From contig NC_007969.1 in assembly GCF_000013905.1 (NCBI RefSeq), positions 1,080,001-1,112,000 of the forward strand: 32,000 bases of DNA. The letters run 5' to 3'. Below are positions 2,635 to 24,557 of this stretch, piece after piece. The stretch comes from Psychrobacter cryohalolentis K5 (GTDB lineage: Bacteria; Pseudomonadota; Gammaproteobacteria; Pseudomonadales; Moraxellaceae). The notes below the pieces were generated by a model. It made no database searches. It was not told the DNA's origin and was given only the letters and a program-made list of their open reading frames with translations. The translations under genes were made by a program, and so were the position numbers. How positions within the stretch are numbered: the stretch's first letter is position 1; each line of letters begins with the position of its first letter.

Positions 2635-5019
2635 TCACATTCTTAAATTCATTTGTTGTGCGATTTCCTCAAAGGTATCACGCACTTGCCAAATTTGTTG
2701 CTTGTTTACTGATGAGAATTGTCCCAATGCTTCTTGTCGGTTTTTTTCGTGACCAATCACTGTGTTAATCAAGATCATTGAAACGCCAAGCTTTTCAAGT
2801 TGGGTACGTAAGAAGTGCCGTGTCCAATAAGAATCCTCAAAAGGCATGTAATCTGCTAACAGTTTTGAGATATGGCTTCGCTTGATTTTAATAAGTTTAT
2901 CGTAATTATCTGATAGTATATTTAGGAGGGTTAACTCATCTTGCTCTTGTTTGATCTGATGAATCATTTTATCGACCTTGGCAGTCGCATAAGGCTGATA
3001 ATCGACAAGAAATAATTGGTACTTTTTTAAAATCGCCAAAAGAGTAGGGCACAGTGGAATTAGCCGATGGTTTTTGACAACCTTGTTAGGTTTGTCAGCA
3101 ACTTCATACCAGCCTGTCTCTAAGTCAATATCTTTAACATTAGTCAGTCCATTATTTGGGCGAGTGCCGGTCAACAAACAAAACTGGATCCAAACAAGAG
3201 CACTATACCTATTAAAGCGCTCCTCCTTATCACCGCTATTACCAACCCATACCCATAGGTTCTGTAAAAAAATATTGACGTACTCTAATGTCAAAGCAAA
3301 TCCAGAGCCTGTAGTAAAATCTGTTCTGGTGCTCGGCTGGCTAATAAAACTATCGTCTAATTGATTATCATAGTTAAGCAGCTCTATCGCTTGACGATAA
3401 CGATTAACAAGAAAATCGTTACTATGGCTGCTGTAGTAGGTAGAGGGCGCAAGAGATGCTGGTATTCGACAAATCAGATCAGCAATATGTTGATTACTAC
3501 CCTGAATGTATCTGTGTAAGATGATATGTAAAGCGGTTTCAATCCGTACTATTGATAGATAGGGTAAGTTTATCTCTTCCTTTATAGCCCGAATATAGTC
3601 TAAGATATCCTCCTTGCTTGATAAATTTCTTTCATTAGAAAGGAGTTTTATTAATCCCATTGGCATGGGCAGACGGATGATACTTTCTTGGTTTTCGTGG
3701 ATACTTGCATCATACTCCTGCTTGCGATCAGTGATTTGCAGCTGATACTGCAAATATGCAGTATCTTCCAAAACGGTGAATAACCCAGAACCTGAAATGA
3801 AACCAGTTGTCATTAAAAACTCTACAGGAACGGCTGTCATCATTGATAGGAGTAAGATTAAAGAGGCTTTATTGTGTTTATAGTCGTATCGATGTGAATC
3901 TATCGCTAATCTGCCAAAAACCTGTTTTAAGCCTGCGACAGAAAGCGTTCGGACATTAGAGTTAAGCTCTAATTCTCTCTGACTAATATAACTATGATGA
4001 ACGTTTTTTTCTATCCTATGTAACGGTTGCATGTAACGAATTTTCTTATCAGGCAAATCTAAACTGACAATTAGTGGACGTTCTAAAGTATCAATATATT
4101 CTTCAATATTTCTAGGTTTTGTTGAGTTTGGTGAGTACAGTTCATAATCAAAATTTGGTATTGCAGGATGTTGATAGTATAAATGTGGAGCATCGTTTTC
4201 AATATCGTATCTACTCAGATTCCAATAACTATTCTCTATCCAGGTTGAACCGTCTACAAAACTAGCTAACTGTTCGGTAATCTCGCTTTTAAAAGTATTT
4301 AAATATTTTTCTTCAGCATCTTCATTTTTACCTTGCCGAGTGATTTTTTTATGTGGATAGTAGGCTTGTTCAAAGCATTTAACAATCGCATCAAGCTGAT
4401 TGATTTTTTTACTGCGTAATTTGATGGTTGCGTCACTTTCCACAGTTCTAGTTAGTAGCTCGTTTCGCACTTCTTGTTCGTACGCTATTTTTCTTAATTG
4501 GGCTATAAAAAATCTATGGAGAAAGTCTACTGTATCTGATAAGCCTTCAATATCGTCAAGTTTTGGTAATATCTCCCAAATCCATCTGTTGTTGTTAGAT
4601 TTAAAAAATACGGGTAATTTGAATCGGTTAATTATATTCGTTAAATGCCTCTTTGCTTTTTTGTGATGTGATAATAACAAATACGTGTGAATGGATATGC
4701 ATAACCATATTATTTCTTTGTGCTCATCACGGGTTAAGTTAGCTACCAAGAAAAGTGGTTGTAGAATCGGAGGTAATGCATTAAGTGTCTTTTTACTGAC
4801 TTCTTCTTGAAAAAGCAAACCGTTTTTTATAGCTATCAACTGCTCTATTAAAGGTGGCGATCGTTGTTGAACGCTTAAATTAATTAAAGTGGCAATTTCC
4901 TTTAGTGAGGCTATCCAGTTCTCAGTGTAGTTATATTCATCTTCAACACTTAAAAAATCAACTTGCTCAATAAGCTGGCTATCCGTCAAAAGAACAATTT
5001 GATTACCATCATCAGGCAT
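2635..5019 (-). CDS. Large tyrosine-recombinase-like protein (794 aa) with Phe at the expected nucleophile position
   Basis: The C-terminal third shows LLTGTRPNNGLTNVKDIDL (box I Arg), HRLIPLCPTLL, WTRHFLRTQL (HxxR) and VIGHEKNRQEALGQFSS. The residue 11 positions after the GH His is Phe (TTC, 2716-2718), and there is no Tyr anywhere in the last 41 residues. The gene is tightly packed between the 179-aa ORF and the next recombinase. Confidence 0.75.
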   Translation of the reverse strand: MPDDGNQIVLLTDSQLIEQVDFLSVEDEYNYTENWIASLKEIATLINLSVQQRSPPLIEQLIAIKNGLLFQEEVSKKTLNALPPILQPLFLVANLTRDEHKEIIWLCISIHTYLLLSHHKKAKRHLTNIINRFKLPVFFKSNNNRWIWEILPKLDDIEGLSDTVDFLHRFFIAQLRKIAYEQEVRNELLTRTVESDATIKLRSKKINQLDAIVKCFEQAYYPHKKITRQGKNEDAEEKYLNTFKSEITEQLASFVDGSTWIENSYWNLSRYDIENDAPHLYYQHPAIPNFDYELYSPNSTKPRNIEEYIDTLERPLIVSLDLPDKKIRYMQPLHRIEKNVHHSYISQRELELNSNVRTLSVAGLKQVFGRLAIDSHRYDYKHNKASLILLLSMMTAVPVEFLMTTGFISGSGLFTVLEDTAYLQYQLQITDRKQEYDASIHENQESIIRLPMPMGLIKLLSNERNLSSKEDILDYIRAIKEEINLPYLSIVRIETALHIILHRYIQGSNQHIADLICRIPASLAPSTYYSSHSNDFLVNRYRQAIELLNYDNQLDDSFISQPSTRTDFTTGSGFALTLEYVNIFLQNLWVWVGNSGDKEERFNRYSALVWIQFCLLTGTRPNNGLTNVKDIDLETGWYEVADKPNKVVKNHRLIPLCPTLLAILKKYQLFLVDYQPYATAKVDKMIHQIKQEQDELTLLNILSDNYDKLIKIKRSHISKLLADYMPFEDSYWTRHFLRTQLEKLGVSMILINTVIGHEKNRQEALGQFSSVNKQQIWQVRDTFEEIAQQMNLRM

Positions 5020-5030
5020 TATATTCCTCG

Positions 5031-5570
5031 CTATTTTTTTGACTCATTTCGTGCGTTATCGTATGTATTTTTATGGATGTTCATGTGTCTGCAAAACAGC
5101 AGGATAGTATAACTATTAAGATTAAATAAATACTGACACTGTTTTGTGGTCAAAGCTGTTTTCAACTCTTGATGGATATTGTAATAATTTAAATTTTCTT
5201 GGTATCGTATGGCTCTATTGAGTATGTTAATTAACTCATAAAAAATATTTTCCAACCTATGAAGTTTAAGGAATTCATCGTTATTAACACATATGCAGTG
5301 TAATTGTCTATCTGTAGCATGATGTATGTATTTTTTACAGAAGAAAGCCAAAATATAGTTATTTAAGAAGATGAAATCTTTATCTGTGATTGCAACCAAT
5401 GTAGTAGTAGCTAAAGCTCTTTCAATTTCTATCTCAAGAAAGCCATCTTCTAGTTTTGATAAGATCTCATAAGTTAGAATATAAAGTTGCTTAAACTCGT
5501 CATGATAAGTAATAAACTGCTCTGAGATATAACTGAGTGAGTATTGTTTTAATTTCACTTTATAATCCAT
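5031..5570 (-). CDS. Hypothetical 179-aa protein, first gene of the recombinase operon
   Basis: ORF on the same strand, ending 11 nt upstream of the 794-aa gene. No motif recognised. Its position resembles the small accessory genes of multi-recombinase elements. Confidence 0.45.
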   Translation of the reverse strand: MDYKVKLKQYSLSYISEQFITYHDEFKQLYILTYEILSKLEDGFLEIEIERALATTTLVAITDKDFIFLNNYILAFFCKKYIHHATDRQLHCICVNNDEFLKLHRLENIFYELINILNRAIRYQENLNYYNIHQELKTALTTKQCQYLFNLNSYTILLFCRHMNIHKNTYDNARNESKK

Positions 5571-5664
5571 TATCTGATAATGTTGCAGGATGCATGCTCA
5601 GTAATTAGGGGAGGGGTACGCTATAAGCAGGCTTTCATAATTGAAGCCATCAAAGATTCAATGG

Positions 5665-6555
5665 TTAATATATCTTTTCTAAAAAAGGCTTCCAGCATAA
5701 GCGTGGTAACTTCATACATATTGGAGCAGACAAAGTTAAATAAGAACTAGAATAGGTAGATAACACATTCCTCATATGTTTAAGTTGAGACTCATAATGC
5801 TGCTCTGCATGAATTTCAGCTTCATATTGACTGCGTAATGTTACATTATAAAAAACTGAAGTATTTTTGTATTGGCGAAAACATAATTCATAAATACTAT
5901 CTTGAAAAAGAAGTTTGTTTTTAATCTCATGGTCAATTTGTGCGTGTAGTATTGTATCTTTGAGCAATTCTTTTACACTTTTCTCAAAATCATCTATGTA
6001 GTAATTCATAGATATTTTAAATAAGGTTTTACGTTTAGGTGTCAGATACTCACCAACATATAGGGCTTCAACCGATAATCTATATGTGTGTGAGTTTGTA
6101 GTTAATGGGACACAATTATTTGATTTAAAATCTTTCTTCCGTAATGTGTAATACCGCTCTGCTACATTTTTTTTAGATTGTGCTGCTGCAATAGCTTCAG
6201 TATATGACTCGTAACTTTTTCTTGCCATCTGGCATTGCTCAGTACTAATCTTCCAAGCTAAGTTCCTATGATATGCTGGGGGTAAAACCGTAATGATCTC
6301 ACCATTACGTTCATCTTGGATAGCCACATAGAAGAACGTGTCCTTAGGGCTAAAAAATAGCAAATGACGACGATATGAACCTGCATGCTGCCCGATGTTC
6401 ACACATGCGCCATTATCAATCAGGCTCATTAATTCTATACTATCCATAGATGTACGCTGAGCAATGCGTTTGGCGGCATGAGAAGATGGATAGGCAAAAC
6501 GTTGTTGACGGAAAATAAAAGCTTTCTGTTCCTTGCTACTCATAAGATCACCCAC
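5665..6555 (-). CDS. Hypothetical protein; N-terminus weakly resembles a DUF4258-type (H-x-x-x-R..QR) small toxin fold
   Basis: 296-aa ORF. The track start is GTG at 6555, but the ATG at 6543 preceded by GGTGGGTGA looks like a better start. The N-terminal SSHAAKRIAQRTSMDSIELMSLIDNG ... EIITVLP pattern recalls DUF4258 from memory only. Confidence 0.45.
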   Translation of the reverse strand: MGDLMSSKEQKAFIFRQQRFAYPSSHAAKRIAQRTSMDSIELMSLIDNGACVNIGQHAGSYRRHLLFFSPKDTFFYVAIQDERNGEIITVLPPAYHRNLAWKISTEQCQMARKSYESYTEAIAAAQSKKNVAERYYTLRKKDFKSNNCVPLTTNSHTYRLSVEALYVGEYLTPKRKTLFKISMNYYIDDFEKSVKELLKDTILHAQIDHEIKNKLLFQDSIYELCFRQYKNTSVFYNVTLRSQYEAEIHAEQHYESQLKHMRNVLSTYSSSYLTLSAPICMKLPRLCWKPFLEKIY

Positions 6556-7064: not shown

Positions 7065-7739
7065 TTATATTGAGCTGACTATATATGTTTCTTTATCTAT
7101 TACTGGATAGAAAGGTTTGCCCCAATCCATCTTGCTATGATGAGCCATCATAATCTCTAGCATCAATGGCAAGATAGAGGACAAAATAGCGCCACTATCC
7201 TTGATTTGAGCCCGATTTACTTTACCATTATGCGTAGCACCGCCATGAATAATTTGATTACGTAACGTATATAAGCGGTCGAACACTACAGCCAGTACTG
7301 TATCGGTATCCTTATTGCTCAATGCACGATGTACTTTATCTTTTGCGCGTTTAAAGTCCTCTTCCCAAGCCTGTTGACTGATCTGCCCGTTATGGTAGTC
7401 CCAAAATGGCTGAAAAGTATACTGGTTTTCTAACAGTATGCGAATGCTGCCAGAATAGGTTTCCCACACTAGTTTATAAATTTGCTGGTCAGTATCTAAT
7501 CGGCATATTAATTGTAAAAATCGCCTAAATTCACTACGCTCAGAGCTACTCGAAAATAGCGCCACTTCACGAGCGTAAGCGGCATTAAAGGCTATCCATA
7601 GGGTAATAAAGCGAATATCATCATCATTAACACTGACCGCTTTAGCAAGCCAGCTCAGAGAACGGTGCATACGTAAGCGAAAAGGGTCGGAGAATTCAGA
7701 CTTTTGAGATTGGTAACGGTTCAACACAACATCAGACAT
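7065..7739 (-). CDS. HEPN-domain protein (Rx4H motif), last gene of the operon
   Basis: 224-aa ORF containing LYTLRNQIIHGGATH (R-N-x3-H, DNA about 7240-7268), the canonical HEPN RNase motif, in an all-helical-looking protein. It lies 42 nt downstream of the preceding gene on the same strand. Confidence 0.65.
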   Translation of the reverse strand: MSDVVLNRYQSQKSEFSDPFRLRMHRSLSWLAKAVSVNDDDIRFITLWIAFNAAYAREVALFSSSSERSEFRRFLQLICRLDTDQQIYKLVWETYSGSIRILLENQYTFQPFWDYHNGQISQQAWEEDFKRAKDKVHRALSNKDTDTVLAVVFDRLYTLRNQIIHGGATHNGKVNRAQIKDSGAILSSILPLMLEIMMAHHSKMDWGKPFYPVIDKETYIVSSI

Positions 7740-7781
7740 TTAATTAGTACCATATATAGTTTTTAATGATTAAAAACCGAC

Positions 7782-8153
7782 TTATAGAAAGTCGTCTTGC
7801 ATAGTCACTTTCTGCTGAGGGTGAAGAATAACTGCTATACCATGTTCCTCATCCCAAGAACAATTACAGAGTAAAGCAAACTCTCCATCACGGTTAAACT
7901 GTAATGCAGTAGGTTGGACCACAGAATTAGTAATATTGTTTGTCCCTGTATAATCGTTTAACAGTTCTAAAGATTTTAACTCAAAGTCTGAATGATTGTT
8001 ATCGAAAAGTTTGTAGGATTGCTCTTGCTCATTAGTAACATGCTCTCCTTGAAACGCACTGAAAACGCAATCTATTACAAAATCCTGTTTATTAAGCTTA
8101 AATTTAATAGGTTTCCGCCAGCCATATTTAAATGATAGGTTTGAAATATCCAT
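7782..8153 (-). CDS. Small acidic protein, putative cognate immunity/antitoxin of the upstream nuclease
   Basis: 123-aa ORF starting 10 nt after the nuclease stop, with an AAGGA Shine-Dalgarno. No catalytic motif. The call rests on position only, following the toxin-then-immunity order typical of polymorphic toxin loci. Confidence 0.4.
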   Translation of the reverse strand: MDISNLSFKYGWRKPIKFKLNKQDFVIDCVFSAFQGEHVTNEQEQSYKLFDNNHSDFELKSLELLNDYTGTNNITNSVVQPTALQFNRDGEFALLCNCSWDEEHGIAVILHPQQKVTMQDDFL

Positions 8154-8163
8154 TTTGTAATCC

Positions 8164-8793
8164 TTAGTTATTTGTAATTAACAGCTGTTTTTTGGCAACA
8201 GATATACCACCTTCATGAGGGATGTTATTGTGTACTTCAGAAGGAACAAGTTGCATAGTTTGACAGTCTTTGCATTCATGCCAAGTATAACCATTTTCTT
8301 TACGCCAATTAGCAACCTCTCTAGGTGTGCATTCCCACTTTTCAGCAAGTTTTTCATCAGCTTGAGGAAAGTTCATGTTTCTTTCAGTTGTGAAGTTATC
8401 TATTTTTACTTCATCCTTCATTATTTCCGAAAAATCCGGTTCACCATCTTTAAAAGATATTCCATCAATACCATATTTTTCTTTGAGCTCACCCCAAGTT
8501 AAATTATCCGGATTAGCTTTTAAAGGTATAAAGTTATCATCAGGATTCCATGTTGAGTTGCCCACTTCATCTACCCAATCACCATTACTTACTGGTAGAT
8601 AGGCATTAGATGGACTGATTTCGAGAGACTGTGGATAATACTCTGTAGACCAAGGCTGATCACTAGCAAAGATATTACCTCCCTTATTATTAGGAAAGGT
8701 ATCCCAACATCCATCTTTAGAAAGTAGACTTTCATCAATAATAGGCTTATCGAGTGTTTTCAAAACCTCACTTTGTTTAATAAACTCGATCAT
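8164..8793 (-). CDS. HNH/EndoVII-superfamily nuclease toxin domain protein (WHH / GH-E-like)
   Basis: The C-terminus reads GYTWHECKDCQTMQLVPSEVHNNIPHEGGISVAKK (DNA about 8195-8293). This matches the remembered WHH-family pattern tWHH..g.mqLVp..lH....HtGG. Its start ATG overlaps the ATPase stop (ATGA at 8790-8793). No signal peptide, PAAR, Rhs or LXG-like N-terminus is visible. Confidence 0.7.
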   Translation of the reverse strand: MIEFIKQSEVLKTLDKPIIDESLLSKDGCWDTFPNNKGGNIFASDQPWSTEYYPQSLEISPSNAYLPVSNGDWVDEVGNSTWNPDDNFIPLKANPDNLTWGELKEKYGIDGISFKDGEPDFSEIMKDEVKIDNFTTERNMNFPQADEKLAEKWECTPREVANWRKENGYTWHECKDCQTMQLVPSEVHNNIPHEGGISVAKKQLLITNN

Positions 8794-11700
8794 AAAATCA
8801 TATCCTTAGAAATATTTTGCCAGGCAGTGCTTAAATCATTATGAATACTACGTGTCATATTATCTGATAGTTGAGTTAAATGATTTTTCAGTAAGGTATC
8901 CGCTAATACGTTTAGCTCCACCTTACTTGACATACGAGTTAACTGAGAACTAATCGTTTCTCGTATACCTAATACAGAAAGTAATAAGTTTGTTGCATTA
9001 GTATGATCGGACCATATTGTTGTATGACCGGTTTTTTCAACTTGTTGTATCGAATTAAGCAACCCAATCTTATAATTAGTAGCTATGTTATATTTTTTAG
9101 CACCATCTTTGAGTATCTGTAAGTCAAACGGCTCTGTCTCATCCATTCGTTTATGAAGTAGCAACCTTGCTAAGTGAAGATTAAACTCTTTACGCTGAGT
9201 GCCCACAGTAACTTGTGTAGTAGTGGGGCACTCATATATTTTTTCTTCCCCACTAAAACGATTAATTTTACAAAGGACAGGCTCTAACCAGTTATTTTGA
9301 TAAATAACAGCAACGCCTCTAGGTAGCCTTGCAATCTCTTCAAGCTGGTCGTCGCTGACTGCTGCTGCTTTACCTATTAAGCGACGATCCTGTTCGTCAG
9401 GCAACCTCAAAATAATTTTAGTATTGGTATTACGTATAGCTGAACTGTCCACTGCACTTGGTGATTGGTCAGCAATAATAAAGCCTTCGCCGTAAGTACG
9501 CATCTCAGCGATAGAGTTTGAAAGCATCTCAACGGCTTTACCAGCCACATTTGACCCTTCAGAGCTTTGTTCAGTAGAGGTTCTCTTTAAAAGATGATGA
9601 GCTTCTTCAAGGATAGTGACGTGTTTAAGAGGTTGGTTCATGCCAGAGAATGCCATACGGCGCTCGTTAAGGCGCATGATCAATATACCCATAATGAGAG
9701 ATTTTGTCTCTTGTGAACCGACGCGACTTAAGTCAATGATAACGTTAGAGTCAAAAAGTATATCATTATCAATTTCATCAGAAGCAAAAATCTGACCATT
9801 TAAACCGTTGGTCAAACTTTTAACCCGTGTTGCAAGCGAACCAATATAATTACTTTTAACCTCGTCTGAGTATGCTGATGTATTTATAACGTTATTAATT
9901 GCTTCCAATAAATCATTAAAGTTTGGAAAGATATCTTCGGAATAATAGTTATATGAATTATCAATGTCCCAACCACTGTCTTTGTAGGCTTGAAGCATGG
10001 CATCTTTTAGAACTGCAGGCATCGCAGCATACATCGACCAACACACGTTAAAGATTTCAATGAGTCTATCGATATGTTCTAAAACGTGAATACTTTTGGG
10101 GAATTTAAAAGGGTTTATTTTTAGTAAAGGAGCTTGAGATGGATTGGTTGAAAAAACATGAACATTCTCTAGATGGCCAAAGACATGTTTATATTCACCC
10201 TTAGTAGGTTCAATGACCAAAAATGGAATATTCTTTTTCTGTAGTTGATACATTAACTCGTATACAGTATTACTTTTACCTGACCCTGTTGAACCTGAGA
10301 TAAACACATGACTGGTTAAATTATCGATATCTAAACTAACTTTTTGTGGTAAGTCATTCCATAAGTGTCGAATAACGCCTAGCTCGATGCTTTTATTAGT
10401 AGCAATGTTATGACCATCCAATGATTTGACTTGTCTACCAAATGCTTGAGTTTCTACCACAGCGGTGCTGGAAGTAGATCGACGTGGCATACTAAGCTGA
10501 ATTGCCATCTCTTTACCGGATACTAATGTTGCTGGAGTTAAATATTTAAGCGGTAGAGTGTTGAAAAAATTAGCGTTAAGCCTAGGGTGGTTGAGAACCT
10601 TCAACCATTCAAGCACACTTTGCATTTTACTATTGTTAGATTTATCCCACGTAGTTAAAGCAAAATCCTCAGTATCTGAATTGCCGCCACGCATCAAACC
10701 TAAAAATATGCTTGCTAGAGTCTCAGATGAAGCTGTGCTATTGCCAATAAAGTAGGCAGCGGTTTGCCAGCCACCATAGCGAGAGGCTTCGTCGACACGC
10801 TCTAATTGTTTATCAATCTTCTTAAGCATTTGCTCAATACTTTTATCCGTCATATCAAGCGTTAATTGACGGCTTGAGCCTGTAGTTTTAGTATCTGACT
10901 GAGAGTTGGTTTCACTATTGGTACTGGTTTCACCAGTAGTTCGCCCTGCTGCAGTACTAAAGCTAGTACCTTTATTAACTCCTTGCGACTCTGTATAGCT
11001 AGTACCAGTCGTTTGATTTTCAGCGAATGGATCACTTAGCATTCTACCTACATTACTACCTATCATTGAGCCAATACCAGCTCCTATACTAGCCCCTACT
11101 GGCCCACCTAATGGTGCACCCAATATGCCACCTGCTACAGTAGCGCCTAATGTGATAGCAGTTCCACCAAAAGACGCTACTTTAGATTTATTGGTTTGTT
11201 CAGAAAGTGATTCTGAAGTCCCATAAGCTTTAGAGGTGTTTGTTCCTTCTGTAATTCCAGACGTTTCGGTTTGGCTCAAGCTATCACTTAATGACTGGCT
11301 AAGGCCATGACTGATTGATAGGCTGATAGCCTCACTATCATTCTCGCCATAAGACATTTGTTGTTTTAACAATGGTGAGAGTTGAGTAGCGACACTTTCG
11401 TAACCAGAACGTATATGAGAAAGCTGGGTAGGGGTAACTGGTTCAGCTAAAATAACTGCAGAATAATTATGTCCTTCGGCAGCATCAATGAAGCGCTCGA
11501 GCCCTTGCATAAAGTGCTCTCTTTCTTCCACAGATAGAGAAGGTACACCGGTAACTGCAGTTACAGACTGGACTGTAGACGTACCATCATGGTTTTCGCA
11601 GTATAGACTATCCATTAGGGTTTGAGTTGCTGAACCATTTAATGGTGTAAGCTCACTACCAGAAAAGTGGCCCTTAAAGGTTTCCTGCAATAGCTGACCT

Positions 11701-12062
11701 GCGGTGCCACCTTGAGTGCCACCTGATTGACCACGAGTACCTAAGTATAAGTGAGTCTCAGAACCATCACAGTCTAAAAATATAAACACCGAAAACCCAG
11801 CAGCACCTAACGCATTATAAGCAGCTGTCATACTTTCTAAAACTGATTGCTTATTTTCAAGGACGATGCGCTCAACTTTAAATATTCTAACGTCAGAGCT
11901 TAAGTTAATCTTGTGATTAAATCGTGGTGCAATATCACAGTGACTCAGCTGTGACAGGTAGCTTTTGTTTATCAGATTGCTAGCATCTTGAAGGGCATTA
12001 AATGCCTGTTGTCGTATAAGTTCAGCTTCTGTTTTAGTGGCAAGTGCTATCTGGTTAGTCAT
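8790..12062 (-). CDS. HerA/FtsK-clade P-loop ATPase (1090 aa) with unknown N-terminal domain and Ser/Thr-rich plus glycine-zipper membrane insert
   Basis: Walker A is HVFISGSTGSGKSNTVYEL (DNA about 10270-10310) and Walker B is HVTILEEAHHLL. The HerA-like tail reads FIIADQSPSAVDSSAIRNTNTKIILRLPDEQDR. Residues about 245-400 are Ser/Thr/Gly low complexity flanking GGTAITLGATVAGGILGAPLGGPVGASIGAGIGSMIGSNVG (DNA about 11043-11171). Confidence 0.8.
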   Translation of the reverse strand: MTNQIALATKTEAELIRQQAFNALQDASNLINKSYLSQLSHCDIAPRFNHKINLSSDVRIFKVERIVLENKQSVLESMTAAYNALGAAGFSVFIFLDCDGSETHLYLGTRGQSGGTQGGTAGQLLQETFKGHFSGSELTPLNGSATQTLMDSLYCENHDGTSTVQSVTAVTGVPSLSVEEREHFMQGLERFIDAAEGHNYSAVILAEPVTPTQLSHIRSGYESVATQLSPLLKQQMSYGENDSEAISLSISHGLSQSLSDSLSQTETSGITEGTNTSKAYGTSESLSEQTNKSKVASFGGTAITLGATVAGGILGAPLGGPVGASIGAGIGSMIGSNVGRMLSDPFAENQTTGTSYTESQGVNKGTSFSTAAGRTTGETSTNSETNSQSDTKTTGSSRQLTLDMTDKSIEQMLKKIDKQLERVDEASRYGGWQTAAYFIGNSTASSETLASIFLGLMRGGNSDTEDFALTTWDKSNNSKMQSVLEWLKVLNHPRLNANFFNTLPLKYLTPATLVSGKEMAIQLSMPRRSTSSTAVVETQAFGRQVKSLDGHNIATNKSIELGVIRHLWNDLPQKVSLDIDNLTSHVFISGSTGSGKSNTVYELMYQLQKKNIPFLVIEPTKGEYKHVFGHLENVHVFSTNPSQAPLLKINPFKFPKSIHVLEHIDRLIEIFNVCWSMYAAMPAVLKDAMLQAYKDSGWDIDNSYNYYSEDIFPNFNDLLEAINNVINTSAYSDEVKSNYIGSLATRVKSLTNGLNGQIFASDEIDNDILFDSNVIIDLSRVGSQETKSLIMGILIMRLNERRMAFSGMNQPLKHVTILEEAHHLLKRTSTEQSSEGSNVAGKAVEMLSNSIAEMRTYGEGFIIADQSPSAVDSSAIRNTNTKIILRLPDEQDRRLIGKAAAVSDDQLEEIARLPRGVAVIYQNNWLEPVLCKINRFSGEEKIYECPTTTQVTVGTQRKEFNLHLARLLLHKRMDETEPFDLQILKDGAKKYNIATNYKIGLLNSIQQVEKTGHTTIWSDHTNATNLLLSVLGIRETISSQLTRMSSKVELNVLADTLLKNHLTQLSDNMTRSIHNDLSTAWQNISKDMIL

Positions 12063-12082: not shown

Positions 12083-13012
12083 TTATCTTAACTTCGCTAT
12101 CAAAGCCAGTATGCCTGCTAGAACAGCGCCACCAATTATAACGGCAGTCTTCATAAAGCTATTTTCTTGTTTAACATGGCTCGACTGCTTACTGCTTGAA
12201 CTGCTACTGGAGGTGTTGTTAAACTGAGGTTTCGGCTTAGGTTGAACTTTTATATGCTCGAAACCTTCTACACCTTTTTGAGCTAAGTAATCGCGAACAT
12301 TGATAAGATGCATTAATCTTTCCATAGCGAAGTTATGGTTAAGATAGCTTTGCTGTAAAAGGAAATAATCTTTATTCCAACTATTGTTGTTTTCAATTAT
12401 GGCAAGACAAAATTTATCTTCTTCATACTCAAGAAAGGCTTCTGGTATATTTTGACTTACAAACATAACCTCTTGAATAATATCTTTAACTAATAATCGA
12501 TTGTTTTTCAAATCAAACTTAATAATATTTTGTACAGCTCTTATGTCTTTTTTCGCGATTGATAGCTGTAGACTTTCTTTAGGTTCATATTCTTTGAGAA
12601 TATCCTTTAAAGCATCAGCATCAGGATTTTCAGATATTAGACTCACATCAATTTCTTGAGTTTCATTACTATTTTCTAGTGTTGACTTGGAGGTTTCGGT
12701 TATTGCAGGGGCATATTGCTCATTATTAATACCGAAGCCTTCTACTTTGTAATCTTGTAGGTAATGTTTTACAGCTATGATATGTTCACAACGCTTTTTG
12801 GAGAACTCCTTATGCTGTATTAGGCTAAGCTCTCCTCGGAAATAGTCTTCATTCCACATACTTTTATTTTTTTTAATTGGATATGTTTCATCATTGAATT
12901 CTACGAAATCAATAGATTGAATATTATCAAGTATGTTCTGAGATGTTTTAGCTGGTATTGAACCATTAGCAGATAGTTCAATAAATTCACTTTTACTATT
13001 TTTTGTGTTCAT
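12083..13012 (-). CDS. Tail-anchored membrane protein with an internally duplicated approx 60-aa domain
   Basis: 309-aa ORF with an AAGGA Shine-Dalgarno. Two related segments are present: ...SMWNEDYFRGELSLIQHKEFSKKRCEHIIAVKHYLQDYKVEGFG and ...NSWNKDYFLLQQSYLNHNFAMERLMHLINVRDYLAQKGVEGFE. These are followed by a poly-Ser linker and a single C-terminal TM helix, TAVIIGGAVLAGILALIAKLR. Confidence 0.6.
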   Translation of the reverse strand: MNTKNSKSEFIELSANGSIPAKTSQNILDNIQSIDFVEFNDETYPIKKNKSMWNEDYFRGELSLIQHKEFSKKRCEHIIAVKHYLQDYKVEGFGINNEQYAPAITETSKSTLENSNETQEIDVSLISENPDADALKDILKEYEPKESLQLSIAKKDIRAVQNIIKFDLKNNRLLVKDIIQEVMFVSQNIPEAFLEYEEDKFCLAIIENNNSWNKDYFLLQQSYLNHNFAMERLMHLINVRDYLAQKGVEGFEHIKVQPKPKPQFNNTSSSSSSSKQSSHVKQENSFMKTAVIIGGAVLAGILALIAKLR

Positions 13013-13119: not shown

Positions 13120-15432
13120 CTATAGAGCTAAAATATTGGTAATTTTAGTATTAAATGTATTAATGTGATTAAGTTCTGCTTTAGCCGTATTAATAGCTTT
13201 CTCACGTTCATCTTTATCATTAATCTTATTTTCTAAATCTGCCATTAGGTTATTAAAGCGTTCGCCAAACTCTTCGTTCATAAAATCAATATATATATCT
13301 ATAGTTTTATTGCTATTGTCCTTAACTTTCTTTACTGCTTCTGCAGAAAGATTTTCAAACACAGCGTCTATTTCTGGACCCCGTTTCGCCCACAAATCAT
13401 CAAGGCTAACAAACTCTTCTTCTTGATTTTCATAAATAGCTTCTTCTGTTGTGCTAAACCAACTAAAAGGGTTGTACCATGTTGAAGCACTAACAGTTCT
13501 TGTTCCTGTTTGAACTCTATGATGTTTAATCTGTACTTCATTCTGCCCTAAAGACATATTAAAAGATGCTATTTGGTTCTTTAAACCCTCTAGCATTGGT
13601 AGCTCTAACTCTGATACATCATTAAATAAGCTGGTTATATATTTATTATAATCTGCTGCTAATTCTGACTGTATCTCTAATTGGTCAGACTCAATGATCT
13701 TTTCTAAATTGATAATGCGTAAGTTAAACTCACTTTGTAAATCATGAGTTAATTTTTTGATTTTCTCTTGAGCCTGTCTTTTAGAGGCTTCTCCTTGAAA
13801 TTTGTTTCCAAAGTCATAAGTAGTCTCTCTCAGGATTTTTTCTTCCTGCATAAATGCTTGAGCTGTTTCTTTTCTTAGTCCTTTTTGCTGCTTTTTTAAT
13901 TTAGTGATATAACCATCTGTTTTGAACGCTTGTTTTTCTTTTTCCCGTAGTATGTTAATAGTCTCTTGCAGATTATTAAGTGCCTGCTGATCAGTTTCAA
14001 GTGATTTTTGTAGTTCAGCAGCATTAGTACATTGTTGTATGATTTGACTGAGTGCTTGATTGGCTCGTGTTACACGGTTAGGAAGACTGTATTTTTCGAT
14101 ATAGTCGTCTATCATCATCTCAACTGCGGGTAGACCACTACGATATAATGCTGTTGAGTAGTTTTTATTATTAATTTTTTCCTGAGTTTTTTTAGATAAG
14201 GGCATATACTGAACTAAATCCATACGTGGCTCTTCATTGAACAGCTCTTCCATTGCATTGATGACACCTCGTTCACTGCGTGTTAATAAGTCGATACTTA
14301 GCTCACGCTTGCGAAGCAAAGAGGTTAAGCTAGCAGATACTGGATATACCAAAGGATTGGCAATACCGTTGTTTTCTAGATATTGTTTGGCACGTGTAAC
14401 TACATCTTCGACATATTCGCCTTTTTCTGGGTCAAATACATCTGCTTTATTAATGACAAAGATAAAGCGATCTTTGCTTTGCTTACCTCCTTTACTCATA
14501 ACATCAGCAATTTGTTTTAGCAGACTTTGATCGTCGTTGATGCCTAGCTGTTGTCCATTTAGAATGTATAGAACTAACGGGTTACGATCAGAATCACTAA
14601 TATATCGCATAGTTGTTAGATTGTGTTCGCTATCTTGACTGTTATTAGGCCCTGGAGTGTCTGTTAAAACTAATCGAACACTCTCTCGTTCTTCTATTGC
14701 AGGTATTTTCCCCTCTATATTAATTCGGAATACATCAGGTGATTTATTCCACTCGCTCATTAGCTGAGATGCCGAGTCAGAGCCTGTTTTTGTCGTAAGA
14801 TTTAATTTTTGTTTCTCATTGACTATACAGTCTTTATTATCTGTACAGCTTACCGTAAAGTGACCTTGTGGCATATCGTCGTTATCAGTAATTTTAGCAA
14901 TTGTAGCTGTGGTTGCTTCGTTTAACGCTGGCAATAAGTCACAACCTAACATAGCATTGATCAGGGTAGACTTACCAGATGACATGGTTGCCACCACATA
15001 GACATCAAAGTTTTTATCAAACGCCGTATCAAACTTCTTGAGTATATCGGGAGTGTTAACATACTGTTTAAACAATGGATCTTGTTTTGCTTCTATTACA
15101 AGCTGTTGAATGTTTTCTAGACGCTCTTCTGAACCTGGTACTACGTCACACCACATCTTGACATTTATTCCGTCTTTGTTGGCTTGTTTAACGGCCTCTT
15201 CCATATCAGTACAGTCTGCTTCTACCCCTTTAAAGTGAACTCTGTATTCTTTTTCACCATTAAATATTTCATATAACTTCTGAAAGAATCCTTCAATCCA
15301 TAGCTGTAGACGTTGATTTTCATATTCAGCGAACTGAGAATTACTCTCAGGTTTTTGGTCATCGATGAGAAAGAAAGTCTCAACTGTAAAAGGATTGTGT
15401 GTGATAGCTACGTTAATCATAAAATACTCCAT
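13120..15432 (-). CDS. Dynamin-like (TRAFAC) GTPase, long form (about 766-770 aa) with N-terminal extension and long coiled-coil C-terminus
   Basis: G1 is VYVVATMSSGKSTLINAMLG (DNA about 14970-15005), G2 region is NEATTATI, G3 is LTDTPGPNN and G4 is VINKADV. The C-terminal approx 350 aa are heptad-like and rich in Glu, Lys and Gln. The start is more likely the ATG at 15420 (GGAG 6 nt upstream) than the one at 15432. Confidence 0.8.
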   Translation of the reverse strand: MEYFMINVAITHNPFTVETFFLIDDQKPESNSQFAEYENQRLQLWIEGFFQKLYEIFNGEKEYRVHFKGVEADCTDMEEAVKQANKDGINVKMWCDVVPGSEERLENIQQLVIEAKQDPLFKQYVNTPDILKKFDTAFDKNFDVYVVATMSSGKSTLINAMLGCDLLPALNEATTATIAKITDNDDMPQGHFTVSCTDNKDCIVNEKQKLNLTTKTGSDSASQLMSEWNKSPDVFRINIEGKIPAIEERESVRLVLTDTPGPNNSQDSEHNLTTMRYISDSDRNPLVLYILNGQQLGINDDQSLLKQIADVMSKGGKQSKDRFIFVINKADVFDPEKGEYVEDVVTRAKQYLENNGIANPLVYPVSASLTSLLRKRELSIDLLTRSERGVINAMEELFNEEPRMDLVQYMPLSKKTQEKINNKNYSTALYRSGLPAVEMMIDDYIEKYSLPNRVTRANQALSQIIQQCTNAAELQKSLETDQQALNNLQETINILREKEKQAFKTDGYITKLKKQQKGLRKETAQAFMQEEKILRETTYDFGNKFQGEASKRQAQEKIKKLTHDLQSEFNLRIINLEKIIESDQLEIQSELAADYNKYITSLFNDVSELELPMLEGLKNQIASFNMSLGQNEVQIKHHRVQTGTRTVSASTWYNPFSWFSTTEEAIYENQEEEFVSLDDLWAKRGPEIDAVFENLSAEAVKKVKDNSNKTIDIYIDFMNEEFGERFNNLMADLENKINDKDEREKAINTAKAELNHINTFNTKITNILAL

Positions 15433-15437
15433 TAGTT

Positions 15438-16430
15438 TTATAAAGTGGTTTTTTGAAATTTATAATTAATAATGTTTTCTAATAAAGGTATACCGCTAAA
15501 ATAAATTAGTTGATTGATTTTACTTTTTGATATTTCTAACCCATCTTTGATCGTAATAGACATATCTTTTTTTTCTGTATTCGGTAATGATATAGTTTTT
15601 ACTTCATCAGATATATTATAAGAGGCTCTTATAAGTCTATCATCATCAAGGTTATGTATGTTTTGTTGTAGCAAATTACGTTCAAATCGAGTAAGAGGTT
15701 CTTTATTTAATACTTTTCTAGCATTTAATGCAGAAAGTGCAGATACTGGTATAATACTAGGGTTTATGAAACCAATGTTTTTTAAATAAGAAGCTATGTT
15801 TCTTACAAAAATTTCAATATCCTCACCTTTTTCTTCATCTAAAACGTCTGCTTTATTAAGTATAAATATAATATTTTTATGCTTATCAGTTTTTAAAACC
15901 TGACTTATCTGTGATAAAAATAGCTTATCGTCATTAATGCCAATTTGAGTAGCGTTTAATACATAGATAATCATTCCATAACGACCATCGCTTACTAAGT
16001 TCAAGGTTAAGTCTTGATGTGTATTATCTTGGCTATTATTAGGACCTGGTGAGTCATACAATACAATGTGCTTACTAGAGTTTTTTATAGAAGGGATATT
16101 ACCGGTTAGACTAATATAGTTGATATTGTTATCCGCATTCCATTTTTTCAATGTTTCACTATCAATAACACTCTTATAGTCTAGAAACTTCAATCTTGCT
16201 TTTTCATTTGATTTAATAGGTTCAAAATTATATGCGGAACCATTAAAGTTATTCTGCTGGTCCTTATTGTGTATTCTCGTTATAGTCGCTGTTGTCGCTT
16301 CGTTAGCACAATGGAGCAGCTCTTTTCCTAACATTGAATTAATAAGTGTGGATTTTCCTGAACTCATCGTCGCTACAACAATAATTTCGAAAAAACTCAC
16401 TACTGACTTACTTCTCTTGTTTTTTGCCAC
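15438..16430 (-). CDS. Dynamin-like (TRAFAC) GTPase, short form (330 aa), paralogue of the downstream gene
   Basis: G1 is IVVATMSSGKSTLINSMLG (DNA about 16350-16385), followed by NEATTATI, G3 LYDSPGPNN and G4 ILNKADV. These motifs are near-identical to those of the 770-aa protein. The GTG start lies 3 nt after the WYL gene stop, and the stop lies 5 nt before the next gene. Confidence 0.8.
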   Translation of the reverse strand: MAKNKRSKSVVSFFEIIVVATMSSGKSTLINSMLGKELLHCANEATTATITRIHNKDQQNNFNGSAYNFEPIKSNEKARLKFLDYKSVIDSETLKKWNADNNINYISLTGNIPSIKNSSKHIVLYDSPGPNNSQDNTHQDLTLNLVSDGRYGMIIYVLNATQIGINDDKLFLSQISQVLKTDKHKNIIFILNKADVLDEEKGEDIEIFVRNIASYLKNIGFINPSIIPVSALSALNARKVLNKEPLTRFERNLLQQNIHNLDDDRLIRASYNISDEVKTISLPNTEKKDMSITIKDGLEISKSKINQLIYFSGIPLLENIINYKFQKTTL

Positions 16431-16433
16431 AAT

Positions 16434-17342
16434 CTAGTTTCCTATTAAATACTTACTTATAGTGATTTCTAAATCTTTCTGAATTTCGCTCGGACTAATG
16501 ATACGTATATAAGGTATCCAGTACTGAACAATAGGAACTACTTCTCTCGGATGTATGTTTTTACATGCTAGTAGCAAATCCCCACTGTCAAGTCTTTGTA
16601 CTAGATTTTGATTGGGCAATAAGTCACGCCGCTCAAAATATCCAGCGACCTTTGCATCGACCTGCAAGATAATCTCACTGATTTGATTGCCAAAGAATAA
16701 GCTATCCGTATCAAGAGTTTCTTTTTTGATATCCTCAGAGCATTGGAAGGTCTCAGTATTTATATGTAACTGGGTCATTTGCGTAAAGCAAAATGTTCTT
16801 GTTTGTCCATGAAGGCGACCTACTACATACCAAATACCATTTTTATTAAGCAGGTGATAAGGTTCTAATAAGTAATGTTTACTATTATTGGAAGCATAGT
16901 CACTGACCTTGCGATAATAAAACTCAATATATTGGTGATTAGTAATGGCTTGGTTAATAGTTCTAAAGTCGTCTGTACGTTCGCTTATATTTTCATAAGC
17001 GAAACCTTTAACGAAAATGCTTTGGTTAAGTTTTTCTTGGAAAAACTGACGGTCAATTTTCGGTAGTAAGTCTTGTACGCTAGCAAAACTAGCAAAACGC
17101 TGAATATCTGCTATATCTAGATATCCAATATTACTAGGGTGCAAGCGATAAAACTGTGGACCTTCTTCATAGAGCTCTAGTAAGGTCAAACGATCCTGAA
17201 AATCTCTCTTTAAGGTGCGGATAGAGACCTTATAGGTGTCTGCTAATTCAAAAATATTCAAACGCTCACCATCGTTAAGTCTAACGATAATGTCAGATAG
17301 TCGATACGCAAGCCTCTCATGTTTTCTCAATTTCATAATCAC
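16434..17342 (-). CDS. WYL-domain transcriptional regulator (HTH + WYL, CapW/BrxR/YafY-like)
   Basis: The N-terminal HTH reads RLSDIIVRLNDGERLNIFELADTYKVSIRTLKRDFQDRL. The WYL core reads HYLLEPYHLLNKNGIWYVVGRLHGQTRTFCFTQMTQL. It is the first gene of the operon. An alternative ATG start exists at 17336. Confidence 0.8.
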   Translation of the reverse strand: MIMKLRKHERLAYRLSDIIVRLNDGERLNIFELADTYKVSIRTLKRDFQDRLTLLELYEEGPQFYRLHPSNIGYLDIADIQRFASFASVQDLLPKIDRQFFQEKLNQSIFVKGFAYENISERTDDFRTINQAITNHQYIEFYYRKVSDYASNNSKHYLLEPYHLLNKNGIWYVVGRLHGQTRTFCFTQMTQLHINTETFQCSEDIKKETLDTDSLFFGNQISEIILQVDAKVAGYFERRDLLPNQNLVQRLDSGDLLLACKNIHPREVVPIVQYWIPYIRIISPSEIQKDLEITISKYLIGN

Positions 17343-19184: not shown

Positions 19185-19404
19185 TTAACCCCCCCCCAAG
19201 TTGTTTTGTACAGATTTGACAGCATAGGTCACTGTGATGAGCAGAGTGATAGACGTGCAAATCATTTAGTTCGATGTGTCATAGATTACACTTAGATTTT
19301 ATTAATGAATAATGACTATAGCAGATAACGTTTAACAGTCTTTTGGTAAGCTTTATACTTTGGCTATATTTATTATTCTTGTTGTTACACGTGAGGTTTT
19401 TAAA

Positions 19405-21709: not shown

Positions 21710-22991
21710 ATGACTAACCAAACTGACATCAAGAAACTGGCCCAGCAGATGGCTGGTAGCATGAACAGCTTTGATGACATCAAAGACTTCCAAAAGCAAC
21801 TCATGCAATCCTTTATCGATACTGCCCTAGAAGCTGAGATGGAAGACCATCTTGGCTATCCTAAGCATGAAAAGGCGGATAAACCTAATAAGCGCAATGG
21901 GCACACTAAAAAGACAGTCCGTAGTGACACAGGGGAGCTTGAGATCTCCACCCCAAGAGACCGTGACGGCGCTTTTGAGCCCACCTTAGTGCGTAAGCAT
22001 CAAACCCGTATCTCAGGGCTTGACGATAAAATCATATTCCACTACAGGCATAGCCTTCCGTCTTGCGCTTCGGGCAAGTGTCTCCCAGACACTTGCTGAT
22101 CCTCGCTCATATGCCAAGGGCCAAACGACCACCGAGATTGTCGAGACCATCAAAGAGCTTTACGACGTCGACATCTCAAGCTCTCTTGTCTCAAGAGTCA
22201 CTGACAACATCTTGGAAGACATCACTGCGTGGCAGAATAGACCACTGAGCAGTGTTTATCCTATCGTCTATTTGGACTGTATTGTTGTTAAAGTACGTCA
22301 AGATAAGCAGATCATCAACAAGGCTATCTATCTGGCGCTAGGGGTGGGACTTAACGGTAAAAAAGAGCTGCTGGGTATGTGGTTATCAGAGAATGAGGGC
22401 GCTAAGTTCTGGCTAGGCGTTCTCACTGAATTGCAAAACCGCGGGGTACAAGACATACTCATTGCCTGTGTCGACGGTTTAAAGGGCTTTCCTGATGCCA
22501 TCAATACTGTTTACCCCAACGCTCAGGTTCAGCTGTGTATCGTGCACATGGTGCGTTATTCAATGAAGTTCGTACCATGGACGGACAAAAAGGCCGTAGC
22601 GGCTGATTTAAAGGCAATTTATGGTGCTGATACTATAGAGATAGCAGAGGCCAATCTTGAGCACTTTGATGAGACTTGGGGTAAAGAGTACCCGCACGTG
22701 GTTAAGTCTTGGCGCAATAACTGGGAAGGCTTAACGGTGTTCTTTGGTTACCCTAAAGACATCAGAAAAGTCATATATACCACCAATGCTATTGAGTCGC
22801 TAAACAGTGTGATTCGTACGGCAGTGAATAAGCGTAAGGTGTTCCCGTCTGATCAGGCAGCGTTTAAGGTAGTCTATCTAGCAACCCAGCAGGCGTCTAA
22901 AAAGTGGTCGATGCCGATTCGTAACTGGACGTCTGCCCTTAATCGCTTTATGATTATGTTTGATGATCGTATCAGTAAGCATTTAATCTAA
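21710..22991 (+). pseudogene. IS256-family (mutator-type) transposase, split into two frames
   Basis: The N-terminal part reads ...LEAEMEDHLGYPKHEKADKPNKRNGHTKKTVRSDTGELEISTPRDRDGAFEPTLVRKHQTRISGLDDKII. The C-terminal part reads SYAKGQTTTEIVETIKELYDVDIS...VYLDCIVVKVRQD...GMWLSENEGAKFW...IACVDGLKGFPDAI...CIVHMVR. The two parts are separated by a 70-bp insertion that shifts the frame. Confidence 0.8.
22037..22106. other. 70-bp insertion inside the IS256 transposase gene carrying a perfect 10-bp-stem hairpin
   Basis: Deleting exactly 22037-22106 restores GAT AAA ATC ATA TCA TAT GCC AAG GGC (DKIISYAKG), the expected IS256-family motif. The insert contains GCAAGTGTCT-CCC-AGACACTTGC (22074-22096). 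Confidence 0.55.
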
Positions 22992-24538: not shown

Positions 24539-24557
24539 TAAATAGATATGTCACCTT

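Follow-up and report, generated by a model that had tools for sequence, protein, structure and literature searches.

An N-terminally extended HerA/VirB4-clade ATPase in a conserved cassette with dynamin-like GTPases and a colicin-type DNase

Introduction

In the Sir2-HerA (Nezha), HerA-DUF4297, and HerA-NurA systems, the gene for a HerA-type ATPase lies next to the gene for an effector that targets nucleic acids, and the two proteins are coupled. Such HerA-effector pairs are an active topic in phage defense. Bacterial dynamins have only lately been tied to phage resistance: membrane binding by DynA from Bacillus subtilis is required for phage defense (PMC12998192), and LeoABC includes paired dynamin-like proteins (PMC4159319). 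Here we describe a cassette that unites a HerA-type ATPase and dynamins in one operon. We studied it in a window of 32,000 nucleotides from Psychrobacter cryohalolentis K5 (NC_007969.1, positions 1,080,001 to 1,112,000), and all coordinates below are positions within this window. The ATPase gene, at 8790..12062 on the minus strand, encodes a protein of the same clade as the HerA systems above, and it also adjoins the gene for a nucleic-acid-targeting effector and is coupled to it.

The cassette differs from Sir2-HerA, HerA-DUF4297, and HerA-NurA in that the ATPase has about 440 extra residues at its N terminus, the effector is a colicin-like DNase of the HNH type with its own immunity protein, and the operon also encodes two dynamin-like GTPases and a membrane adaptor. 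The protein is an effector-coupled HerA ATPase with an unusually rich and undescribed context. (We found no description of a cassette of dynamin, HerA, and DNase-immunity genes in the searchable literature. The surveys of polymorphic toxins that defined WHH, LHH, and SUKH discuss HerA/FtsK pumps in the type VII context only, and dynamin is absent from them.)

The translocases VirB4, VirD4/TrwB, FtsK/SpoIIIE, EssC, and CedD are also similar, as they join a P-loop pump to hydrophobic segments via a long linker. But these translocases have classical N-terminal transmembrane helices, whereas the hydrophobic element in our ATPase is a single marginal Gly-rich segment, a predicted hairpin, that follows a soluble domain of 240 residues. 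Also, the cassette contains no other secretion or conjugation genes, and the ATPase scores far below the cutoffs for these families. In its expected mode of action, the ATPase comes closest to the effector-coupled HerA ATPases and to the FtsK/VirB4/VirD4 pumps, which are tethered to the membrane. As for the dynamins, B. subtilis DynA and LeoA/LeoBC (Eleos) resemble the cassette in having a tandem pair of dynamin-family GTPases, but the LeoABC paper reports neither a HerA-type ATPase nor a DNase-immunity pair as neighbors.

We propose that the ATPase is a membrane-tethered motor of the HerA/VirB4 clade that controls a DNase effector in anti-phage or anti-plasmid defense. We put the probability of this explanation at about 0.5.

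Results

A HerA/VirB4-type core with about 440 extra residues

The start codon of the ATPase (ATG) is preceded, 7 nucleotides upstream, by an AGGA box. An earlier note on this DNA, made without database searches, had singled out 10863-12062 on the minus strand, which encodes the first 400 of the 1090 residues. We divided the protein as follows:

8790..12062, minus strand: N-terminally extended HerA/VirB4-clade ATPase, whole open reading frame, 1090 residues (open reading frame list, Pfam DUF87, Foldseek)
11343..12062, minus strand: family-specific N-terminal alpha/beta domain, residues 1-240 (AlphaFold2 domain model, family search)
11181..11342, minus strand: N-flank Ser/Thr-rich tract with a period-2 Ser/Thr pattern, residues 241-294 (composition, family-wide spacing)
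11055..11180, minus strand: uncharged Gly/Ala-rich segment of 42 residues, predicted glycine-zipper helical hairpin, residues 295-336 (GxxxG, Gly periodicity)
10857..11054, minus strand: C-flank Ser/Thr-rich tract with a period-2 Ser/Thr pattern, residues 337-402 (composition, family-wide spacing)
10347..10856, minus strand: conserved helix and alpha/beta region before the ATPase core, residues 403-572 (alignments, AlphaFold2)
9243..10346, minus strand: HerA/VirB4-type P-loop ATPase core, residues 573-940 (Pfam, PADLOC, NCBIfam, Foldseek, Walker motifs)
10272-10295 and 9597-9614, minus strand: Walker A and Walker B, within the ATPase core
8793..9242, minus strand: fast-evolving C-terminal helical domain, residues 941-1090 (AlphaFold2 helices at 949-1089, drop in identity)

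Both Walker motifs are intact (Walker A, GSTGSGKS, at residues 590-597; Walker B, ILEEAH, in the style of HerA/VirB4, at 817-822). The central domain of HerA (DUF87 in Pfam) spans residues 573-794, with a score of 65.8 bits versus a cutoff of 23.2. The PADLOC models for HerA and mad8 and the NCBIfam models for CedD and HerA also align to the core, with scores well below the equivalog cutoffs; CedD is the top NCBIfam match (100.7 bits).

We then considered a full-length AlphaFold2 model of the monomer, which was based on an alignment of 68 sequences. The mean predicted local distance difference test score (pLDDT) was 60, and residues 601-790, which make up the first half of the core, scored 75-88. 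When compared to known structures with Foldseek, the model matched Sir2-HerA, Sulfolobus HerA, VirB4, and the C-terminal part of DndH (DndH-C) at about E = 1e-10 (E = 1.6e-10 to PDB:8j4u; E ~1e-10 to 8sub and 4d2i). The target-normalized template modeling score (TM-score) was 0.69 to VirB4 (4ag5/4ag6) and DndH-C (7es4) and 0.52-0.54 to 4d2i. The Walker motifs, the profile score, and the similarity of fold all place the protein in the HerA-VirB4 clade of the HerA/FtsK superfamily.

Within this clade, the ATPase does not belong to the described families that we considered. For the anti-phage HerA families NF042943 and NF042944, it scores 76.3 bits versus a cutoff of 800 and 21.3 versus 850, and its partner is a WHH DNase. 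Membership in the MADS system is not supported. NCBIfam also has a family of “serine-rich protein” (NF033849 or ser_rich_anae_1, about 1160 residues), whose alignment with the ATPase runs from the Ser-rich linker across the core (for example, residues 402-935 of the ATPase align to 588-1148 of the profile). The ATPase scores 80.8 bits against NF033849 and six homologs from other phyla score 70-110, versus a cutoff of 650. These alignments suggest that NF033849 is a sister family that shares this overall architecture.

How long is the extension? The earlier note stated that the P-loop begins only at about residue 585 and that the extension has 580 residues; the second figure is too high. Solved HerA proteins have 500-696 residues, with about 130 ahead of the P-loop. 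Because residue 132 of Sulfolobus HerA aligns to residue 574 of the ATPase, the true extension beyond canonical HerA is about 440 residues. Alignments to the HerA and CedD profiles begin at about residue 480-575 in the ATPase and its homologs, and the last part of the 403-572 region is the counterpart of the region ahead of the P-loop in canonical HerA. The 403-572 region has no match in Pfam and is strongly conserved in two alignments. AlphaFold2 predicts a helix at 403-429 and then beta/alpha elements (in the monomer model, residues 431-578 are alpha/beta at low confidence).

At the other end of the protein, the C-terminal helical domain is just 15-20% identical between relatives whose cores share 59-67% identity. 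Any covariation of the C- and N-terminal domains with the type of nuclease is very small (+0.03 to +0.04 in identity); the figure is confounded by phylogeny and relies on a crude classifier of motifs.

The extension is conserved across phyla

A search of 5.8 billion proteins gave 629 matches to the ATPase. The best 120 of these have 969-1121 residues, cover about 90-100% of the query (with one at 67%), and are 53-61% identical to it outside Psychrobacter. They include proteins from Moraxella, Pasteurellaceae, Paraburkholderia, Pseudomonas, and Stutzerimonas. A scan with one genome per species found relatives in many phyla and at least 402 species. We kept 80 loci, from Proteobacteria, Bacillota (Lachnospiraceae, Clostridium, Paenibacillus, Bacillus, and Veillonella), Fusobacteria, Brachyspira, Bacteroidota, Fretibacterium, and Wolinella, and in each of these proteins the match begins at about residue 10-30 and extends to about residue 1000-1090. 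The earlier note had allowed that homologs might generally lack the insert, which would make it an accident of one strain. The full-length homologs across phyla rule this out.

We also searched with the N-terminal domain by itself (residues 1-245) and found 633 matches among 1.84 billion cluster representatives. Among the 150 of these that were listed, all the full-length proteins (about 1000-1190 residues) have the domain at the N terminus; the shorter matches look like fragments at the ends of contigs. Invariant residues include Y106-x-G108, G131-x-F133-x-G135, and Q186-G187-x-E189. The AlphaFold2 model of this domain, which rests on 55 sequences, has a beta-alpha-beta-beta-alpha-beta core and a mean pLDDT of 68.5 (80-91 for residues 51-150).

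As the earlier note had it, residues 1-240 (which include the peptide FSVFIFLDCDGSETHLYLGTRGQSGG, at about residues 90-115) do not resemble any known domain. Pfam and NCBIfam yielded no match even at E ≤ 1, we found nothing meaningful in a profile search of PDB sequences, and there was no convincing Foldseek match in PDB or among the viral folds of BFVD. (The candidates were assorted ferredoxin-like or Rep-like folds with TM-scores of only about 0.2-0.27, and we rejected them.) Residues 1-240 are an unrecognized, family-specific domain.

The ATPase is encoded with dynamin-like proteins and a membrane adaptor

The ATPase lies in an operon of closely spaced genes on the minus strand, where it comes fifth. 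The other genes of the operon are:

16434..17342, minus strand: WYL-domain regulator at the head of the operon (Pfam WYL, 4.4e-12; PADLOC WYL, 1.9e-23)
15438..16430, minus strand: short dynamin-like GTPase, 330 residues (Pfam Dynamin_N, 3.6e-18)
13120..15432, minus strand: long dynamin-like GTPase, 770 residues (Pfam Dynamin_N, 4.7e-13)
12083..13012, minus strand: adaptor, 309 residues, duplicated internally, with a Ser-rich tail and, at the C terminus, a Gly-rich transmembrane helix (hydropathy, alignment)
8164..8793, minus strand: WHH/colicin-type DNase with an HNH fold (Pfam WHH, 1.5e-18; Colicin-DNase, 3.5e-16)
7782..8153, minus strand: DUF6985 protein, presumed cognate immunity protein (Pfam DUF6985, 4e-11)

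The same gene order is found in Paraburkholderia, Haemophilus, and Pseudomonas, with LHH and SUKH in place of WHH and DUF6985. A homolog of the long dynamin-like protein is encoded upstream of the ATPase in 80 of 85 loci; of the five loci without one, three are truncated contigs. Loci from Clostridium and Parabacteroides likewise have a second, shorter dynamin-like gene (few loci were surveyed for this). The dynamin-like proteins are only distantly related to bacterial dynamins with solved structures (E ~1e-3 to 2j68 and 7zw6). Neither of them matches any PADLOC model at E ≤ 0.01, so membership in Eleos (LeoA/LeoBC) is not supported.

The adaptor is conserved in alignment and does not match any family in Pfam. 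Its hydropathy reaches 2.39 at residues 290-308. In at least 65 of 78 loci, the adaptor has one or two hydrophobic segments, rich in Gly/Ala, at its end. The adaptor also contains a duplication (residues ~46-93 versus ~205-251, 42% identity, E = 6e-11) with the motif W-x2-DYF...NF..ER..H[LI]I.V..YL...(V)EGF, and a poly-Ser tail precedes the transmembrane helix. Because the adaptor is membrane-anchored in most loci and is accompanied by two dynamin-like GTPases, the cassette probably works at the cell membrane.

The DNase gene is translationally coupled to the ATPase gene and followed by a presumed immunity gene

The start codon of the DNase overlaps the stop codon of the ATPase (ATGA). An overlap of 4 nucleotides is found in 39 of 83 loci, and 10 others overlap by 1 nucleotide. 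A DNase is encoded downstream of the ATPase in about 69 of 81 loci: 35 have WHH/colicin-DNase, 28 have LHH, 4 have Endonuclease_NS_2, and 2 have NERD. The gene after the DNase encodes SUKH in 42 of 79 loci and DUF6985 in 16; the remainder are PoNi and others.

Across the 80 loci, then, a variable C-terminal toxin domain is accompanied by a matched adjacent immunity gene. Polymorphic toxin-immunity modules use the same families (WHH and LHH; SUKH, DUF6985, and PoNi) and also swap them as matched pairs (PMC3113570, PMC3482391). This similarity raises the possibility that the cassette is a toxin-export machine for interbacterial antagonism, in which a membrane-tethered ATPase translocates the DNase in the manner of VirB4/VirD4 or EssC. 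The ATPase would recognize a short signal at the N terminus of the DNase; export might be into vesicles or across membranes that are remodeled by the dynamins; and the immunity protein would shield the producer and its kin.

Several observations fit with export. First, toxin and immunity genes are swapped in the fashion of polymorphic toxins (WHH with DUF6985, LHH with SUKH, as well as the NS type and PoNi). Second, the C-terminal domain of VirB4 is the closest fold to the core, and FtsK/HerA-type pumps power type IV and type VII secretion (PMC3113570, PMC3482391). Third, across the 85 loci, DNases with different catalytic domains (WHH and LHH) have a common N-terminal signature. The motif LD[KR]P[ILMV] occurs at about residue 14-50 in 25 of 81 DNases versus 0.9 expected; the signature also includes M-[IL]-E or MNFE at the start, and position 3 is glutamate in 27 of 81. 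This signature may be a docking peptide for the ATPase.

On the other hand, the range of effectors is limited to DNases, unlike that of classical polymorphic toxins, and the toxin gene is translationally coupled to the ATPase. The toxins are short (about 170-330 residues), and Pfam finds only nuclease domains on them, with no N-terminal trafficking domain and no receptor-binding, translocation, or secretion-associated domain. In the loci that we inspected, the cassette contains no secretion-system genes, and we saw no arrays of orphan toxin/immunity cassettes. The cassette is found without envelope-spanning parts in one-membrane and two-membrane bacteria alike. Finally, the WYL regulators and the island context (see below) favor defense. 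Overall, we consider toxin export to be unlikely.

A predicted glycine-zipper hairpin between Ser/Thr-rich tracts

We then examined the linker between the N-terminal domain and the conserved region ahead of the core. Using a MAFFT alignment of 84 homologs, we extracted the part that matches residues 236-405. In the Psychrobacter ATPase, 14 of the 50 residues at 296-345 are glycine (p = 5e-7 given a background of 5.7%), and none of residues 297-338 are charged. (The peptide GGTAITLGATVAGG...GSNVG, which was quoted in the earlier note, lies at about residues 299-339.) Of the 84 homologs, 59 have a run of 25-49 uncharged residues that is rich in Gly/Ala, and every phylum is represented (Proteobacteria, Bacillota, Bacteroidota, Fusobacteria, spirochaetes, and Synergistota).

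These runs have a regular structure. Among 58 distinct segments, pairs of glycines are enriched at i+4 (z = 8.4), i+8 (z = 5.7), and i+7 (z = 3.4) and depleted at i+2 (z = -7.3). (The Psychrobacter segment alone has 6 GxxxG motifs versus 3.4 expected, p = 0.06.) Most of the segments contain proline (52 of 59), and 34 of the 61 prolines are in the central fifth of the segment, where “P.TGG” or “GGP” is a frequent motif. This amounts to the pattern of a glycine zipper, with GxxxG (i+4) periodicity on two uncharged stretches that would be helices joined by a turn. Given the periodicity at i+4 and i+8 and the central proline, we predict that the segment forms a glycine-zipper helix-turn-helix hairpin. 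As for hydrophobicity, the Kyte-Doolittle hydropathy over 19 residues reaches 1.2 in 66 of 80 distinct linkers and 1.6 in 42 of 80. Weak matches to glycine-zipper models in Pfam, and a match to the ApoL family in homolog P0017 that barely exceeds its cutoff, also speak for a hairpin.

The flanks on either side are rich in serine and threonine, as the earlier note had observed: these make up 42% of residues 241-295 and 346-400, versus 17% of the rest of the ATPase (binomial p = 5e-10). Across the family, the flanks average about 57 and about 60 residues. In both flanks, Ser/Thr recur at i+2, i+4, i+6, and i+8 (z = 6.7-16; 9.5-16 in the N-flank) and are depleted at odd spacings. Hydrophobic residues are in the alternate phase (at i+4 and i+8 in the N-flank, z ~12; at i+2 in the C-flank, z = 11.5). 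As judged from these sequences, the pattern is a beta-strand-like alternation with one Ser/Thr face. Because this alternation has a strict period of 2, the flanks are not random linkers. Tandem Repeats Finder reported no DNA-level tandem repeats beneath the Ser/Thr tracts. We rejected recent microsatellite expansion as an origin: there were only two 12-nucleotide repeats and an overlapping 10-nucleotide call, all beneath the Gly segment.

Several points weigh against a membrane-tethered motor that acts in defense. The hydropathy of the segment is 1.39 in the Psychrobacter ATPase, below the usual threshold of 1.6. A simple sum on the Hessa scale is +3.5 kcal/mol, and it is positive in 80 of 80 homologs (median +3.6); for comparison, the sum for the adaptor's transmembrane helix is +0.26 kcal/mol. 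AlphaFold2 predicts no helix, with residues 268-402 unstructured (pLDDT 21-32). The glycine-zipper models in Pfam that we tried (Gly-zipper_Omp, Gly-zipper_YMGG, and glycine zipper 2TM) all score the segment below their gathering cutoffs (17.5 versus 25 for PF13488, 12.8 versus 28.9 for PF13441, and 12.7 versus 24.2 for PF05433). And about 15-20% of the homologs lack the hydrophobic run while retaining the Ser/Thr tracts and the rest of the protein (for example, Pseudomonas loci L004/L005 and loci L016-L018, L030, L035, and L042). As to defense, dedicated immunity proteins typify interbacterial toxins, not defense systems. The dynamin-like proteins, the adaptor, the DNase, and the immunity protein have no match in PADLOC, and we found no published test of such a cassette in the searchable literature.

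Because of the marginal hydropathy, the disorder in the AlphaFold2 model, and the homologs without a hairpin, the segment is at most a candidate for a constitutive membrane span. The earlier note had proposed a GxxxG glycine-zipper hairpin. The family-wide periodicity and the central proline support it, while the Pfam cutoffs and the AlphaFold2 model do not. The note's proposal of membrane anchoring fits with the adaptor and the pair of dynamin-like neighbors but not with the marginal hydropathy, the positive Hessa-scale sum, or the lack of a predicted helix. Taken together, a membrane role for the hairpin is plausible and is supported by its context, so the note's interpretation holds up in part.

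Could the Ser/Thr/Gly region instead be a soluble, low-complexity linker that tethers two cytoplasmic domains flexibly and has no membrane role? This would account for the absence of predicted secondary structure and for the positive Hessa-scale sums. Also, the linker varies in length and sequence among homologs, and its hydrophobic part is missing from some. But periodicities that span phyla, a central proline, and so many consecutive residues without charge are unexpected for a neutral linker. The partner adaptor has matching Gly-rich transmembrane segments, and there is no repeat expansion at the DNA level. The glycine periodicity and the proline also argue that the segment is not the featureless linker that the earlier note had considered as the alternative. 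We find a purely soluble tether to be very doubtful.

Another explanation is that the ATPase is itself an effector that forms pores, as the earlier note had suggested, or a conduit. An activated ring would drive the hairpins into the membrane, and the oligomers would either permeabilize it (abortive infection) or channel DNA or protein. Ser/Thr tracts border the insertion loop of aerolysin-type pore formers, and the flanks in this family recall these. In all phyla, strict period-2 Ser/Thr tracts surround a hydrophobic tip, whose marginal hydrophobicity would suit conditional rather than constitutive insertion. Also, one homolog (P0017) has a match to the ApoL family over the hairpin region, just above the cutoff. 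However, the periodicity of the central segment is helical, not beta, and we did not detect a pore-former family with Pfam, including the aerolysin and ETX-MTX2 families. The hairpin is dispensable in the homologs that lack it. Moreover, the cassette already has a dedicated effector. The translationally coupled DNase, which is paired with an immunity protein, is the obvious candidate for that effector. The ATPase itself probably does not kill the cell, and a pore-forming role is quite improbable.

Genomic neighborhood

WYL genes adjoin the cassette in many other loci, and the neighborhoods often resemble defense or mobile islands. In loci from Pseudomonas and Paraburkholderia, the island genes include BrxR-type WYL regulators, SIR2, NERD-UvrD, PLD, and integrase. 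Because WYL/BrxR-type regulators are adjacent and neighboring genes are related to defense or mobility, we view the setting as defense-like.

Plasmids seldom carry the cassette (10 of 72,556 records), and it is essentially absent from phage records. Among 5,426 complete genomes of E. coli, we found it in just one, on the conjugative IncI-type plasmid pTW10590_133 of an enterotoxigenic strain (NZ_CP035852.1, 50-58 kb). The plasmid carries the complete cassette, next to an IS66 transposase and etpB, and RefSeq annotates the genes as dynamin, dynamin, hypothetical, ATP-binding protein, HNH/ENDO VII nuclease, and SMI1/KNR4.

Just downstream of the immunity gene in Psychrobacter, at 7065-7739 on the minus strand, is an open reading frame of 224 residues with a HEPN-like R-x4-H motif (LRNQIIHG). 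Its matches are weak (HEPN_RiboL-PSP, E = 0.19, and Csx1/CARF-HEPN in PADLOC). Homologs are in the same position in seven loci from Pasteurellaceae, Moraxellaceae, and Lysobacteraceae. A terminator-like hairpin at 7778-7794, at the stop of the immunity gene, separates this open reading frame from the operon. In a scan for promoters and terminators of the operon, the counts were no higher than in shuffled sequence.

The rest of the window includes other genes that are related to defense or to mobile elements, as well as open reading frames with no match in Pfam or PADLOC:

26535-30053, plus strand: superfamily 1 (SF1) helicase of 1172 residues with an RNase H-like domain, which matches MkoA of Mokosh in PADLOC (4e-42)
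30067-30642, plus strand: open reading frame of 191 residues after the helicase, with no family match
23477-25184, plus strand: HNH endonuclease of 353 residues with PtuB/PDC-M01B-like matches in PADLOC, and then a methyltransferase of the S-adenosylmethionine type (208 residues; MADS mad2 model, 8.6e-16)
21710-22991, plus strand: transposase of the Mutator/IS256 family in two overlapping open reading frames (129 and 323 residues)
2635-6555, minus strand, and 19360-21048, plus strand: open reading frames of 794, 179, 296, and 562 residues with no match in Pfam or PADLOC

The MkoA-like helicase is probably a separate defense gene of the same island. The apparent split of the transposase suggests that an insertion sequence, located between the cassette and the remaining defense genes, has undergone a frameshift or decayed. 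The region at 20-21 kb has an unusually high skew of guanine over cytosine (GC skew of 0.35) and a low GC content.

Discussion

How might the cassette work? We propose that the ATPase is the central, hexameric-type motor of a conserved, membrane-associated conflict cassette. The hairpin would dip into the cytoplasmic membrane or pack within it, alongside the Gly-rich transmembrane segment or segments of the adaptor, and would thereby keep the ATPase ring on the membrane, at the site of action of the dynamin-like pair. There, the ATPase would deploy or activate the translationally coupled DNase, which the immunity protein would restrain. We infer this coupling of the ATPase to the DNase, which would parallel how HerA scaffolds NurA, Sir2, or DUF4297 effectors. 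The target would be the DNA of an incoming phage or plasmid at the membrane.

A more elaborate idea is that a ring of at least six Ser/Thr-hairpin-Ser/Thr modules might form a stalk, a beta-barrel lined with Ser/Thr, whose helical tip inserts into the membrane. The DNase, or DNA, would then move through an ATP-powered conduit across a membrane that has been reshaped by the dynamins. We give this idea little credence, but if it is true, the conduit would be a previously unrecognized translocation apparatus that is common to one- and two-membrane bacteria.

The N-terminal domain and the periodic module of Ser/Thr tracts and glycine zipper are new sequence families that are worth defining. The cassette is widespread (at least 402 species); its hosts include Haemophilus, Aggregatibacter, Pseudomonas, Paraburkholderia, gut Lachnospiraceae, Bacteroidota, and Brachyspira, and it is also on the plasmid from enterotoxigenic E. 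coli. If the DNase is exported, then the cassette would be a new secretion route. If our preferred explanation of a defense system is correct, then the cassette would represent a new membrane-based mechanism, and it could reveal a role for dynamin-like proteins in immunity.

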